Below, piece by piece: positions 4,069 to 21,701 of a stretch of 26,545 nt of DNA. This stretch comes from a virus (lineage: Duplodnaviria; Caudoviricetes). The stretch lies in IMG/VR virus record IMGVR_UViG_3300037657_000297, positions 1-26,545 of that record; one strand, given 5' to 3'. The position numbers were made by a program, and so were the translations under genes. The notes below the pieces were generated by a model. The model saw only the letters and a program-made list of their open reading frames with translations, was not told where the DNA came from and made no database searches. Numbering within the stretch: position 1 is the first letter of the stretch; each line of letters starts with the position of its first letter.

Positions 4069-4590
4069 TTACTTCAGAACGTTTGAAAGCGCGTCGGTAT
4101 ATGACATGCCGGGACGTGATTCCTGATACTGCTTCACCTTTTCATGGATATCTGCCTTGTCGGGATCGACGCCCTCGGAATATATCCCCGCGGCGTTCCC
4201 CTCCGGAGCGCGGTCTTTCCCGTACTTCGCCTTCCCGTCGGGCGCGACTCCGGGTTTCGCGGTTTCGGCGAACCCGAGAAAATAATCGAGCCCCGATTTC
4301 TTCCCTTCGCTGAACGCCAGTGTTTCCGACTCGTCAAGCGTCATCGCGAACGAGACAAATTTGTCTTTTTCTTTCGCGTCGAGCCGCCCGCCTACGATCA
4401 TCTTCTCGGCCGCCCCGGTAATCTTCGCGCGCTTCGCGTCCGCGATAGCTTTCTTCTCGGATTCTGCATACTCGGAAATCTTTTTATCCTTTTCCGCGTT
4501 TGCCGTTTGCGATTCGGCGTACTTAGCTTTTAGGTCGGCGTTTTCCTTGTCCGCCGCAGCCAGCTTTTCAGCCAGTTCTTTTTCGTTCAT
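4069..4590 (-). CDS. Probable internally initiated scaffold protein (Mu Z-like), in frame with the protease
   Basis: AAGGAGG SD upstream of in-frame ATG 4590 (MNEKELAEKL...); same arrangement as Mu I/Z. Confidence 0.65.
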   Translation of the reverse strand: MNEKELAEKLAAADKENADLKAKYAESQTANAEKDKKISEYAESEKKAIADAKRAKITGAAEKMIVGGRLDAKEKDKFVSFAMTLDESETLAFSEGKKSGLDYFLGFAETAKPGVAPDGKAKYGKDRAPEGNAAGIYSEGVDPDKADIHEKVKQYQESRPGMSYTDALSNVLK

Positions 4591-5235
4591 GGATGTATCC
4601 TCCTTTACTTTATCTTCCGAATAGGGGAGCGTCTTTTCAGGCTCCCTCATCAACTCCTCGATCTCCCAGTTCCCGATCATTTTATCCGCCGCTTCCACCC
4701 CCTCCTTTTCGATCAGGTAATCCTTGAGCGCGCGGAACAACCGTCCGGCCGTCCTGAACTTCCATCCCTCGTCGTCGGAAAACTCGAACGTCTGCGCGTC
4801 CTGTCCGGCGAACTCGGCGGAGAGCTTGCGTTCGCTGAATGCCGGATCGGCGAGACCTTTTACCGCGGGAGCCGCGCCTCCGAGAAATCCGATATGCTTG
4901 AGCGCGAATTTTCCTGGATGCGGGTTGACCGGGTTGTCAGGGCTATAAAGCGAGACGCTCCGTTTTTTATAACGACCTTTCTTGACCGCTTCGTCGAATG
5001 CGGGGGACACGTCTTTCAGTTTCGCCATCAGCACATCGCCGTCGCGCCTGAGTTCTTCCGCCCATCCCCACGCCGGGTCGTCCGTCTTCGGGTGCCCGAT
5101 CACGACCGGAGCCTCGTGCGTTTTTGCGTCGTAGGTCTCGACTATCTCGTCCAGTTCCTTCGTCGTGAATTCCTCGGTATGCCCGGACATGTCCGTCTGC
5201 TTACCCGCCCGGAATATCTCGATCCATCCTTTCAT
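4069..5235 (-). CDS. Mu-like prohead protease I with C-terminal scaffold
   Basis: WIEIFRAG, APVVIGHP, PAWGW, GRYKKRSVS, LKHIGFLGGAAPAVKGL, then a charged coiled-coil. Confidence 0.88.
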   Translation of the reverse strand: MKGWIEIFRAGKQTDMSGHTEEFTTKELDEIVETYDAKTHEAPVVIGHPKTDDPAWGWAEELRRDGDVLMAKLKDVSPAFDEAVKKGRYKKRSVSLYSPDNPVNPHPGKFALKHIGFLGGAAPAVKGLADPAFSERKLSAEFAGQDAQTFEFSDDEGWKFRTAGRLFRALKDYLIEKEGVEAADKMIGNWEIEELMREPEKTLPYSEDKVKEDTSMNEKELAEKLAAADKENADLKAKYAESQTANAEKDKKISEYAESEKKAIADAKRAKITGAAEKMIVGGRLDAKEKDKFVSFAMTLDESETLAFSEGKKSGLDYFLGFAETAKPGVAPDGKAKYGKDRAPEGNAAGIYSEGVDPDKADIHEKVKQYQESRPGMSYTDALSNVLK

Positions 5236-5310
5236 TTATAAAACCTCCCCGGACGTCGAGTTCCCGATGAGGGAATATCGAGGTGTCCTGTAATATTTTC
5301 TCCAAATCCC

Positions 5311-5339
5311 TTGACTTTCACGCCGTTTCATGCGATACT
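5311..5339 (+). promoter_or_regulatory. Sigma70-type promoter, antisense to the late operon
   Basis: TTGACT-N17-GATACT with TGn extended -10. Confidence 0.6.
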
Positions 5340-5345
5340 ATTATT

Positions 5346-5448
5346 GACAGAGGAAAACAATTACTTGTCTTCGTTTTCCCGCGATAGTCCCTCATGGCGA
5401 GGGGGACGGACCATAACGCCTTGCATTCCGCGAGGCGTTATTTTTTTT
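5346..5448 (+). ncRNA. Candidate ~100 nt small RNA convergent with the portal-MuF gene
   Basis: Bounded by the promoter above and an intrinsic terminator; possible pseudoknot plus hairpin; no credible ORF. Confidence 0.55.
5413..5448 (+). terminator. Rho-independent terminator
   Basis: ATAACGCCTTGC-ATTCC-GCGAGGCGTTAT followed by a T run; overlaps the stop codon of the minus-strand gene. Confidence 0.7.
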
Positions 5449-8314
5449 GCCTCACCATTATTCCGGGTGTTTCTTTAGCCCGGAAACTGAACGTCCATCC
5501 TGAATAACCCGGATACTCGCGCGTACTGTTTATCACAACGTTCCAGTATCCTCCTTCTTCGACTTTTAGGATGTAACCCTTTCCGAGTTTGACCATTCCG
5601 CTTTTTTTCTTTATTCCGGGAGCTTCCTGCAGGCTGATAACCACCGCGTCAGGGTTTTTCAACGCTTGCTCGAACAGATTGAGATATTTCAACCTCGCGA
5701 GGTTCTTCAGATACTGCGCGGGCTTATCGACCGGAATCACGTGGTCGATCAGCCGGTCGGTATCAATATAAATCGTGTTCCCGAACTTGTCCGTAATCTT
5801 ACCGTCCGGGATTATTTCTTTCAGGTATGCCTTCGCCTTCGCGGAAACATCCTCCGGTTTCCCTTTAACATCAAAACCCGCTTTTTTTTCAAGGACGTCT
5901 TTCAGTTCTGTTTTCAAATCGACTTTTTCGTCGATCAGGTTTTTCCATCCCGAGGTATCCTTATTCTGCTTGATCTCCAGCCATTTCCCGAAATCCTTCC
6001 CGGCGTTATTTTCGAACCCTTCCGGAGTCTTCAGAAGCAGTTTTCCCGAAGTATCGAAATTATTCAGCTTCGGCGCGACGAGTGTCTCGAAATCCGGGTT
6101 GTACGAATTATTAGCGACAACCTCCTTCATATCCGGCGCGCCCTGCGGAAGTTTTTCTGGGTCGATTCCTTTGTTCTTCAGGTATTCCGGTGAAAGACTC
6201 CGCACTGTGCACCGGCACCCGAACGCGTCCTTTGGGGTATGTTCGTCCCAGAACGGGTCGTCGTAACGGCGGATCATCCCATGCATCGCCGCGTGCTCCG
6301 GGCGCGTCCCTTTATCCATCGTAGCAATTCTCTGCCAATAGGGGGCGATATCGACGTCTTTTCGGAGCTGCGCCATTTTCCCGGCCATCTGCGCAGAACG
6401 CATATTTTCCCAGTAAACCTGCTTGAGCCGCGCTTCCGGCAAAACGCCTTTTTCCATCCATCCCGACACCCATTCTTTATAAGGGATATTCCCTTCTTTC
6501 GCGTCTATCAGGGATTTCAATAAATCCGCAATCGTCTCTTCCTTCAGGTCGCCGGTTACCGTAAACGCGAAGTTCCGGTACTTTTCGCCGAGCGCGAGAA
6601 AATCCGCTTTCGGCATCGGAACCTTCATCTTCAGGAAATCGACCGCCGTCTGAGGGGGTATTTTACCCTTCATATCCGCGAGCGAGACGACCTCTTGGCT
6701 GGCGTAGTTTTGCGCATCATTCCATCGCGCCTGCCCTGAGCGAAGCCGAAGGGCCCAAATCCGCCCTAAAATATCGCCTGCAAGTAGCGCGTTCCCGAAC
6801 GACACGGATGTCGAAGAGTCGGCCGGTTCTGCATCGACCGCAATATCGAGCGAATCCGCTATCCGTTGCATCGCCTCGTCATATTCCGAAGCGCCTTCAA
6901 GTGCGGCGTGAATTGCGTTTACAAACGGCTCGAATAGTTTGCCCTTCTTCGTTTCACCTTCAATCGCGGCATCGAACGCTTTGTCTTCCGCTTCAACAGT
7001 CGCGATTTCAATATCCGTTAGTACTATCACCTTGACATCATCCCGAACTAGTCGAGGGATGTTTTTTTTTTCGACCCCCACGGATGGGGGAAGTCCCGCG
7101 GGGGCATGGACGCCGGAGAGCGGGACATCCTTCTCTGCGAACGGAAGTTCCGGCGTAGTTTCTTCCTTGATGGCGAAATCGTCGCCTTCCTTCATCCGGT
7201 ACTTATCCGCAAGGTATTTCGGAGTAGGCCGCCATCCGATATTATAGAGGAGAGCGTCGCGCTGGGCGCGGTCGGCGGCTACATCCTCTTCCTCGAAATA
7301 CTTTAACGATGGAAATTTTTCGACGTTATAATTCAGGTTCACGAGGCTTCTTGCGAGACGATTGAATGTATTTGCAACCATCTTTTTATCACCCTCGACT
7401 ATTTCCCCGCGAACTTGGAAGTGTACCGTGCCCAGAGCCTGCGAGCCGACATTACCCTGCTCGGTCGTGAGCGTCTGTCCGAGTATCGCTTTCGAGACCT
7501 CGGCATTACTCCACCCGACCATTTGGCTGAACGCGAGAGAGGAACCCGCTTTATTCACATCCACCGTCATCAGCTGATCGCCGGGTTGCCCCTGAAACAC
7601 ACCGGTCGCATCCTCGACCATCCGGTCGAGCATATCGAGCATTTTATCGATCTTTTCCTGATTCTGCTCCTGTGTCATAATGTACATCAATGCGCCGCCG
7701 TACTTCTCGAGGAAGTTCATCCAGAATTTGACGCCGCCTTTCTTGAACGAGACCGGCCAAAACACGCGCGCGAGTTTCCGTTCGCCGTAAGGGTTCCTGT
7801 AGGTAGCCCGGTGACGGACGAGTTCGATCCTATCCATCTCGACCAATTCACCGTCAATGCCTTTTCCCTTCGAAAGAAACCGTAATTGATTCTGGTTGTC
7901 GAACACAAACCATTCGGGCGGTCGTCCTTCTATAGCAGAGTAATAAATCCGGTTGCCGTCGGTGGTGGTAACCTTTTCCAGAACGCTCAACCCGTAATAG
8001 ACGGCTTCGAGTATTTCGCGGGTCAGGGTTTCGGTATCGATATTCGCGAATACGTCCTTCACGAAATCGAGCGCGCGTTTGTCTTCTCGGCGCGAACTGT
8101 CAACCTGCCAATCCCATTCGCACGAAAGCACGCCCGCCTCGCGGCTGGTCATACAGCTATCGACATGCGCGTCGAACGTCAATTGACGGTAGATCGAAAC
8201 ATCATACCCCTTCGCCTGAAGAACGCTATCCGGGTCGGGCAGACGGGTCAAATATCCCGCCATTTCCTGCCATGACCGCTCGCGTGTGTAAATAGAACCC
8301 ATATTTTTTGCCAT
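5438..8314 (-). CDS. Portal (Mu gp29/DUF935) - MuF head morphogenesis - putative PBECR-type nuclease fusion
   Basis: N-terminal ~400 aa: DAHVDSC..R, YYGLSVLE, FLEKYG, ISK-like VSKAILGQTLTT..GSQALGTVH. Middle: AFTVTG, PYWQ..ATMD..TRPEH, DDPFW..FGCRCTV. C-terminal: H...RLKYL..LKNPD...GY...GWTF. Start ATG 8314 (8302 alternative). Confidence 0.85.
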   Translation of the reverse strand: MAKNMGSIYTRERSWQEMAGYLTRLPDPDSVLQAKGYDVSIYRQLTFDAHVDSCMTSREAGVLSCEWDWQVDSSRREDKRALDFVKDVFANIDTETLTREILEAVYYGLSVLEKVTTTDGNRIYYSAIEGRPPEWFVFDNQNQLRFLSKGKGIDGELVEMDRIELVRHRATYRNPYGERKLARVFWPVSFKKGGVKFWMNFLEKYGGALMYIMTQEQNQEKIDKMLDMLDRMVEDATGVFQGQPGDQLMTVDVNKAGSSLAFSQMVGWSNAEVSKAILGQTLTTEQGNVGSQALGTVHFQVRGEIVEGDKKMVANTFNRLARSLVNLNYNVEKFPSLKYFEEEDVAADRAQRDALLYNIGWRPTPKYLADKYRMKEGDDFAIKEETTPELPFAEKDVPLSGVHAPAGLPPSVGVEKKNIPRLVRDDVKVIVLTDIEIATVEAEDKAFDAAIEGETKKGKLFEPFVNAIHAALEGASEYDEAMQRIADSLDIAVDAEPADSSTSVSFGNALLAGDILGRIWALRLRSGQARWNDAQNYASQEVVSLADMKGKIPPQTAVDFLKMKVPMPKADFLALGEKYRNFAFTVTGDLKEETIADLLKSLIDAKEGNIPYKEWVSGWMEKGVLPEARLKQVYWENMRSAQMAGKMAQLRKDVDIAPYWQRIATMDKGTRPEHAAMHGMIRRYDDPFWDEHTPKDAFGCRCTVRSLSPEYLKNKGIDPEKLPQGAPDMKEVVANNSYNPDFETLVAPKLNNFDTSGKLLLKTPEGFENNAGKDFGKWLEIKQNKDTSGWKNLIDEKVDLKTELKDVLEKKAGFDVKGKPEDVSAKAKAYLKEIIPDGKITDKFGNTIYIDTDRLIDHVIPVDKPAQYLKNLARLKYLNLFEQALKNPDAVVISLQEAPGIKKKSGMVKLGKGYILKVEEGGYWNVVINSTREYPGYSGWTFSFRAKETPGIMVRQKK

Positions 8315-8544
8315 TTTTACCCCGTTTTTGACTCCCACAAGGGGAGAAATTCCGCGATTCCACGGATGGAAAGGAGCGGAACACCATATTTTTTAAGTTT
8401 TTCCTTCAATATCTTATATTTCTATATCCGGTAAACACTTGAAGCACTCTTTAATAGCCTATAACACCGTTTATTATTACAACCCCTGTATAGAGTTATA
8501 TTATCATGTTTTCCTAATATCATTCAACGTCGTTCGATTCGGAA

Positions 8545-9051
8545 TTACTTTTTCATTTTCGTACTTCTTGCCGTGTCGAGGTTCAGAAAATACATAATTT
8601 CGTCAACATTCTTCGTTAATTCTTTACTTGATATTACTTTATCAAGTCTATTATTTTCATTGTATAAAACAGTGCATATTTCTGTTCTTTTATTGCAGGA
8701 AACAAAACCTTTTTCTACACCCTTTAGATATCCAGCGGAATATGCAGTCCAGTAATTTAGTTGATTGATTGCGTTTCTTGTTCTTTTCACGAAAAGAAGA
8801 AATTCCTTTGCGAACTCCCTGTTTGAAAGCCCTATCAGTTTAATTAAACCAAACTCATTGATTGTAAGCCGTATTTTTTCCCCGTCATTTATTGTTTTTA
8901 AATCTCCCCTTGCTACCTGTGTATTCATAACATGGATTGGATTATCAAATCCAAGTAAATAGCACACTTTCCCTGTATCCCAATAGGCTTCATACCCGTC
9001 GGAAAAAAGATCGATACGGATGCTTTCGATTTCTATAACATATTTTTTCAT
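8545..9051 (-). CDS. BRO-N-like domain protein
   Basis: VCYLLGFDNP, INEFGLIKLI.LS.R..AKEF match BRO-N; visibly AT-rich; ATGA overlap with the terminase gene. Confidence 0.65.
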   Translation of the reverse strand: MKKYVIEIESIRIDLFSDGYEAYWDTGKVCYLLGFDNPIHVMNTQVARGDLKTINDGEKIRLTINEFGLIKLIGLSNREFAKEFLLFVKRTRNAINQLNYWTAYSAGYLKGVEKGFVSCNKRTEICTVLYNENNRLDKVISSKELTKNVDEIMYFLNLDTARSTKMKK

Positions 9052-13580: not shown

Positions 13581-13859
13581 TTATTTTTTAGAGGTGAATA
13601 AATCGTCTTCTTTCATCCGATTTATCCGTTCGATTATGCGGCGAACCCATCTATCGGACAATCCGTATTTCCGCGCCAGTTCCTTAAAAGGCATACCCGA
13701 CCGGTAATTCTTCTCGATCCCAGCATCCCGTTTGGTACGGTGCAGAGAGGAATTCTTCGGGACAGTCCAATGCTCACCGCTCATTAAAAAGATCAGGCCC
13801 AGAGTCTTTTTTTCGCCGATGAGCTTCTTTACGCGCTCGATCCGTTCGTATCGCTTCAT
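13581..13859 (-). CDS. Mor/C family transcription activator
   Basis: IG...L...SGEHWTVPK...RD..I...G..ELARKYGLSDRWVRRII. Confidence 0.88.
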   Translation of the reverse strand: MKRYERIERVKKLIGEKKTLGLIFLMSGEHWTVPKNSSLHRTKRDAGIEKNYRSGMPFKELARKYGLSDRWVRRIIERINRMKEDDLFTSKK

Positions 13860-17021: not shown

Positions 17022-17107
17022 TGCCTGCGGCGGGATTCGAACCCGCGACGCGTCGCCGTTATCCCTATTAAGGGAGGCGACTGTTCTATCCGCTGAACTA
17101 CACAAGC
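17022..17107 (-). tRNA. tRNA-like gene with a 20 nt anticodon-loop region; anticodon unassignable
   Basis: GCTTGTG TA GTTC-AGCGGATA-GAAC A GTCGC-[CTCCCTTAATAGGGATAACG]-GCGAC GCGTC GCGGG-TTCGAAT-CCCGC CGCAGGC A; no encoded CCA. Confidence 0.8.
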
Positions 17108-21631: not shown

Positions 21632-21701
21632 TTACGGGGGCGGGATTCGAACCCGCACATACCGGATAAGTCCGGCAAGTCTACCGTTGCTTCACCCCGT
21701 G
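21632..21701 (-). tRNA. Initiator-tRNA-like gene with a 4 nt anticodon loop
   Basis: CACGGGG TG AAGC-AACGGTA-GACTT G CCGGA-CTTA-TCCGG TATGT GCGGG-TTCGAAT-CCCGC CCCCGTA A; C1:A72 mismatch; no CCA. Confidence 0.75.

Follow-up and report, generated by a model that had tools for sequence, protein, structure and literature searches.

Introduction

In MuF polymorphic toxins, a MuF domain encoded among the head-module genes of a temperate phage is joined to a C-terminal nuclease tip, and the immunity that goes with it is a protein in the relevant passages of Jamet et al. (2017; PMC5576092). Here we describe a locus of the same layout, a portal-MuF-PBECR2 fusion gene with no small immunity open reading frame (ORF) downstream, behind which lies a predicted small RNA (sRNA) unit pointing towards the gene. 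The locus is part of a 26,545-nt stretch of viral DNA (Caudoviricetes; IMG/VR record IMGVR_UViG_3300037657_000297), the whole of which is called the window below. The feature is real, widespread and apparently undescribed, and the function that we propose for it, RNA-based immunity, is plausible.

The domain family itself is known. Iyer et al. (2017; PMC5512222) reported the portal-MuF-PBECR architecture, found PBECR in up to 26% of polyvalent proteins, and described its active site as a His combined with a Ser or Thr, a pattern that the window domain matches; the passages of that account on PBECR and MuF-C name neither a partner RNA nor an immunity factor. RNases held in check by RNA are known from the type III systems ToxIN, CptIN and TenpIN, in which the inhibitor is a structured, pseudoknot-type RNA (passages of PMC5086642), and the same has been proposed for the window. 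As laid out in those passages, such systems are bicistronic, with the RNA upstream and a terminator between RNA and toxin, whereas the window RNA is downstream, convergent and present in a single copy without repeats (5345-5448 hold no tandem repeat array), and its putative toxin, with a predicted BECR fold, is fused to virion proteins. Because it lacks repeats and is not bicistronic, the window locus is not a member of these families. Of the ToxI-like antitoxin suggested in an initial annotation of this DNA, what survives is a conserved convergent RNA that is lost when the domain decays; the repeats and bicistronic layout that define ToxIN-type loci are absent.

The AbiF and DUF3800 RNAs come closest as a precedent: many unrelated RNA folds accompany one nuclease family, as here, and the RNA of AbiF binds its toxin directly and thereby neutralises it (portions of 10.1101/2025.04.15.648962 and PMC5737381). 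AbiF (Abi_2/AbiF) and DUF3800 are other proteins than PBECR2, those portions include no tRNA-derived form, and the Rfam models of these RNAs gave no match in the window or in 10 related loci. Colicins D and E5 and the tRNases of contact-dependent inhibition (CDI) resemble the window domain weakly in fold, but the colicin and CDI inhibitors are proteins. A search of the open literature, covering main texts and few subscription papers, turned up no RNA linked to PBECR or MuF. Main-text passages of two papers on enterohaemorrhagic Escherichia coli sRNAs (PMC13502914, PMC13192938) and of a survey of structured phage RNAs (PMC10690425) do not describe the RNA, which their supplements might list, and passages of 10.64898/2026.08.28.747851 contain no RNA partner.

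Results

A convergent promoter accompanies MuF nuclease tips

The initial annotation had proposed searching homologous MuF-PBECR loci for a conserved convergent promoter, and such a promoter is indeed conserved. We fetched 241 MuF loci (labelled by L-numbers below), which as the best 80 of each large scan are a sample; once the window was added, a stop codon followed by 260 nt of sequence was available in 227 of 242, and 191 were left after removal of near-duplicates. Pfam (E ≤ 0.01) was used to class the tips of 150 of the 151 extended proteins, some of the labels lying below the curated cut-off. Promoters were scored with a sigma70 weight matrix of approximate frequencies, requiring a −10 box 60-140 nt past the stop on the convergent strand. 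Among these 191 loci, which are related to one another so that the counts are not independent events, a convergent promoter followed 33/48 PBECR2 tips (window included), 16/22 PBECR3 tips and 9/13 MuF_C tips, together 58/83. In contrast, it was found in only 4 of the 74 comparison loci (short MuF 3/65, other toxin tips 1/9); unclassified tips scored 9/34.

The strand preference was pronounced. Promoter scores of at least 11 occurred on the convergent strand in 28 of 135 loci versus 2 of 135 on the same strand, a T-loop motif had 14 matches on the convergent and none on the gene strand, and folding was better on the convergent strand in 66 of 95 cases. Relaxed ARAGORN (-ps75) produced many matches in the controls too and was discarded. 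In most loci the 3′ end of the RNA overlaps the stop codon, and the unit tracks the nuclease domain irrespective of the next gene. These counts support the conservation of a convergent RNA unit behind homologous domains, far beyond chance.

Similar units also occur away from MuF fusions. In four of five large polyvalent genes (small numbers), a strong antisense promoter lies inside the ORF, 73-196 nt behind the PF18810 match; the structured RNAs predicted from these promoters in L248, L252, L253 and L257 overprint the linker of the large polyvalent ORFs. A solo PBECR2-like gene outside a head module is followed by a convergent promoter and an RNA of ~75 nt (L249:1746-1830). Three other solo PBECR2-like genes (L250, L256, L258) lack the convergent promoter and have an abutting or overlapping DUF2283 protein partner. 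At L152, the PBECR2 gene reads out of frame through its own RNA region.

The RNA fold varies with the nuclease clade

Comparison of the RNAs suggests that their fold differs by nuclease clade, MuF_C, PBECR3 and PBECR2 each having a type of its own. MuF_C RNAs are tRNA-like without a normal anticodon loop and match only the acceptor, D and T parts of tRNA; one of them (L037) reaches 35.5 bits with the tRNA model of Rfam, which is over the cut-off. The homologue in a Mu-like prophage of E. coli O157 (L295:1043-1122) is annotated in RefSeq as 'tRNA-OTHER', on the opposite strand and 2 nt behind the MuF stop, and this RNA was matched in 163 of 5426 E. coli genomes. 'tRNA-OTHER' annotations may flag further members of the family. 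The middle hairpin is variable in the tRNA-like members.

PBECR3 RNAs keep the cloverleaf outline, with double-sided changes in 14 of 16 consensus pairs across 27 RNAs; this set was picked by hand, omits L043, L084, L153, L054 as well as the clade's two loci that lack the RNA, and includes L118 and L130 from a neighbouring clade. The D-like and T-like loops of 23 of these 27 RNAs can form at least 5 Watson-Crick bp, in several variants, as against 27% for swapped partners (0 of 100,000 permutations). PBECR2 RNAs are unrelated in sequence, yet the loops of two hairpins are complementary in 16 of 38 versus 9.1% for swapped partners (again 0 of 100,000 permutations; 39 RNAs with a promoter score of at least 7.5, one of which lacked two hairpins). 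The kiss permutations ignore relatedness. Across the family, a tRNA mimic looks like the better model than the H-type pseudoknot, for whose first stem (a/a′) no covariation was seen; the relatives display loop-loop kisses.

The RNA is mostly lost when the domain decays

In the MuF_C clade, a helix His and a basic motif on the last strand are present in 12/12 RNA-bearing and 0/9 RNA-less domains, by patterns that were written after the alignment had been viewed. The RNA-less loci, in which the following gene lies directly against the stop, sit in three parts of the tree and include phage Mu gp30, where the next gene overlaps the stop, and Shewanella phage MuM16-1; the Mu gp30 domain was called inactive by Iyer et al. 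(passage in PMC5512222). The RNA-less domains of L166 and L079 (PBECR3) and L067 (PBECR2) are likewise eroded. Judged by conservation, domains without the conserved His or basic residues have mostly lost the RNA.

The RNA unit of the window

The convergent elements first noted in the window are all in place (Table 1): the opposite-strand promoter TTGACT-N17-GATACT, which also has an extended TG, the GUCCCUC/GGGGGAC hairpin, and a terminator whose 12-pair stem (5413-5441) and T-run overlap the fusion stop codon (5438-5440). The fusion gene is separated from the next gene by 202 bp, and the minus strand of this gap holds only ORFs of 21-34 codons, none of which starts at the fusion stop, in agreement with the reported lack of an immunity ORF. 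Two further ORFs were rejected as products: one of 55 codons on the plus strand (5311-5478) starts inside the −35 box, and one of 37 codons (5394-5507) reads through the terminator. An Rfam scan of the gap gave no match, and neither Rfam nor ARAGORN called the unit as a tRNA. Its strong folding (z −4.05 for 5345-5450) is due to the terminator, without which z is −1.07.

Table 1. Positions of the RNA unit, the fusion gene and neighbouring genes in the window.
Feature	Position	Strand	Remarks
Convergent sigma70-type promoter	5311-5339	+	TTGACT-17-GATACT with extended TG
Predicted small RNA, ~100 nt	5345-5448	+	start estimated from the −10 box
Stem a/a′ (5346-50 with 5365-69)	5346-5369	+	competes with the kiss 5364-69 : 5396-5401
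Hairpin H1, 7-bp stem b/b′, 14-nt loop	5352-5379	+	counterpart of the first hairpin of L291/L292/L246 (by eye)
Hairpin H2	5387-5407	+	loop is candidate kiss partner of the H1 loop
Intrinsic terminator over the fusion stop codon	5413-5448	+	
Portal-MuF-PBECR2 fusion gene	5438-8338	-	966 amino acids (aa) from GTG; 954 aa in database call
PBECR2 predicted RNase domain	5486-5800	-	aa 847-951; model pLDDT 87.4
Mu-type head maturation protease gene, next in late operon	4069-5235	-	phrog_976, E 2e-92
Mor-family gene	13581-13859		

The 5′ part had been read as an H-type pseudoknot, and its a, b, a′ and b′ segments do occur in that order (5346-50, 5352-58, 5365-69, 5373-79). Crossing stems as good were found in 26 of 2000 shuffles (p about 0.013) of a 41-nt piece that was chosen after the fact; over 68 nt, another crossing pair scores best, and 283 of 2000 shuffles match that score. 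The nearest RNA relatives, L291, L292 (=L002) and L246, have the promoter at the same position, nearly identical hexamers and a nearly letter-for-letter alignment. Their first hairpin corresponds to stem b/b′ and has a similar loop. In these relatives the leading GACAG forms the base of this hairpin and is not a pseudoknot strand, which means that a/a′ is not conserved. The first loop contains CUU and the second loop RAG in all four RNAs, and by eye these loops pair over 8 bp in L291, 7 bp in L246 and about 3 in L292. The same register gives the window RNA a 6-bp kiss with two G-U pairs (Table 1), for which two pairs of H2 would have to open. The duplex energy is −4.7 kcal/mol for this kiss versus −3.1 for a/a′; the two draw on shared bases, and the nested minimum-energy fold favours a third, long hairpin. 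A tertiary contact in the window RNA, kiss or pseudoknot, is likely, and from comparison with its relatives a loop-loop kiss would suit the family better than a/a′.

Single-protein scans for close relatives in which covariation with the window RNA could be assessed found none. A gapped motif scan returned 30 loci, none with a PBECR-like frame, and a motif taken from a related contig gave no matches. This contig, obtained in two of three runs, matches only 5290-5341 and 5434-5454, so that the promoter and the stop-codon end are kept, while 96 other letters replace the 92-nt RNA body; the body seems to be exchangeable under a fixed promoter. A 22-nt inverted repeat (82%) joins 5262-5283 and 5379-5400 and endows the protease mRNA leader with a look-alike of H2. 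We set it aside as a regulatory target: L291 and L292 have no room for it, and in the related contig the leader is retained next to another RNA.

The fusion gene and its surroundings

Profile searches place Portal_Mu at aa 48-381, Phage_Mu_F at 630-712 and PBECR2 at 847-951 of the fusion protein. The expected PBECR-like end is borne out: the PBECR2 profile (PF18810) matched with 28.7 and 32.8 bits, above the curated cut-off of 27.1, and His866 (5741-5743) and Thr949 (5492-5494), residues His60 and Thr143 of the last 160 aa, are invariant in 10 of 10 aligned homologues. By its sequence the fusion has the layout of a MuF polymorphic toxin, a MuF domain with a C-terminal toxin domain in a packaging module. 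Structure prediction, also proposed at the outset, returned a confident model by predicted local distance difference test (pLDDT; Table 1), with the conserved His on the N-terminal helix and the Thr on the last strand. Its best fold matches, all below Z 5, were 3ao9, which we take to be colicin E5 (Z 4.4, root-mean-square deviation 3.4 over 87), 6cp9 (Z 3.6) and colicin D (5znm, Z 3.5); this model weakly points to BECR tRNase-type toxins. A sequence search of the PDB found no match. For the closest relatives of the fusion protein, the source label is Spirochaetota.

The 26.5-kb virus record also contains a Mu transposase, a terminase, a Mor-family activator and head genes; late genes of Mu require the C/Mor activator. 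Between terminase and portal lies a Bro-N-like gene (8545-9051, minus strand) that scores under the Pfam cut-off. The protease contains repeated F[AS][ED] motifs, which homologues also conserve in the linker between portal and MuF; one may speculate that they are maturation cleavage sites. The early region of this Mu-like phage harbours an intact tRNA-Leu(TAA) gene (17022-17107, minus strand), and a tRNA-like element with a shortened anticodon loop (21632-21701, minus strand) is located upstream of the transposase gene; it scores 42.9 bits on the Rfam tRNA model and is not called by ARAGORN.

Discussion

We propose, with a probability of roughly 0.55, that the convergent unit encodes an RNA immunity factor for the PBECR2 nuclease, a substrate mimic that is probably derived from tRNA. 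Its host-type sigma70 promoter would have the RNA made in the lysogen and early, the fusion being a late gene. Two hairpins, held together by a pseudoknot or loop-loop contact in place of the tRNA elbow, would bind the predicted nuclease as a non-productive, tRNA-derived substrate mimic and so keep it from cutting the RNA of the producer cell. Lysogens might also be shielded from the same nuclease brought in by a virion; such delivery would require release of the domain from the portal to which it is fused. That each nuclease clade appears to have its own RNA fold would resemble cognate toxin-immunity pairs. The sequences show how the genes are arranged, that the arrangement recurs, that structure covaries in relatives and that the RNA goes missing together with conserved domain residues; transcription and its timing, binding, inhibition, nuclease activity and virion delivery are inferred.

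Several observations weigh against this reading, in addition to the relatedness of the loci, the late choice of the MuF_C patterns and the low fold scores given above. In the window itself, 4 promoters in the region versus 1.6 in shuffles and 4 terminators versus 3.5 are near chance, so that the case for an RNA unit rests on the comparison; moreover, the window RNA is not tRNA-like, and its score in the automated kiss test was only 3 bp. When conserved basic columns were counted blind, the association with RNA loss was weaker, 8/13 versus 10/93 domains falling below half (p 1e-4), with three abutting calls wrong. The RNA is kept in L002 and L291, where the helix His is gone; L151 leaves no space for an RNA behind a fairly intact domain; and in L111 and L245 the RNA is reduced to about one hairpin. 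Many PBECR2 domains have Lys or Arg in place of the His, which leaves their 'active' status to conservation only. Finally, silencing in cis or a cofactor role of the RNA would predict co-loss just as well.

Silencing in cis would make the unit similar to a type I system, with convergent transcription or antisense pairing damping leaky expression of the nuclease or cutting the operon before the protease gene. The strict tail-to-tail geometry, the stop codon covered by the RNA 3′ end in most loci, the loss of the unit on domain decay and its antisense position inside large polyvalent ORFs would all fit. However, the window RNA overlaps the ORF by only ~11 nt at its end, plus intergenic mRNA; tRNA D- and T-loop motifs and a covarying intramolecular kiss are needless for an antisense RNA, and the RNA fold goes with the nuclease clade; we regard this explanation as unlikely. 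Quite unlikely, in our judgement, is an RNA that acts as cofactor, guide or dedicated substrate, within a nuclease-RNA ribonucleoprotein that is packaged or aimed at host defence RNAs. Co-occurrence and co-loss suit it equally well, the variable middle hairpin of the tRNA-like members could hold specificity, and mRNA or CRISPR-RNA targets were proposed for PBECR by Iyer et al. (passage in PMC5512222). Against it, a host-type promoter apart from the late operon would suit protection rather than co-assembly, DUF2283 protein partners occupy the place of the absent RNA, and no guide-like variable single strand was seen.

That there is no separate RNA at all, the signal belonging to the late mRNA as a structured element or to the promoter region of the downstream gene, seems very unlikely. 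The window gap does precede the protease gene, ahead of which Mu has a late promoter, and the inverted repeat links the protease mRNA leader to the RNA body; but promoter, T-loop motif and better folding all favour the convergent strand, and the unit follows the nuclease domain whichever gene is next. Least probable, and in our view highly so, is an RNA like the phi29 pRNA that works in packaging or head assembly with the portal or MuF part through intermolecular loop pairing. Kissing loops can build rings, and the unit adjoins a portal fusion; yet by the promoter test it is missing in phage Mu and in 62 of 65 short-MuF loci, it tracks the nuclease tip and not the portal, and it is also found behind a PBECR2 gene outside head modules (L249).

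Returning to the RNA immunity factor, a broader and more tentative suggestion, for which we would not offer even odds, is that the PBECR nucleases found in Mu-like phages and in polyvalent proteins make up a large toxin class, so far undescribed, with RNA immunity captured from tRNA. An anticodon-less mimic would have replaced its D-loop/T-loop contact by a Watson-Crick kiss and diversified with each clade into pair-specific protection from a virion-borne tRNase. If RNA immunity is correct, it would supply the missing immunity factor of a very common phage nuclease family, explain both the dead domain and the absent RNA of phage Mu gp30, and reinterpret the recurring 'tRNA-OTHER' annotation in Mu-like prophages. 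It would also offer a traceable route from tRNA to a protein-inhibiting RNA, and the long-open function of the MuF extensions becomes directly testable in a two-part assay.

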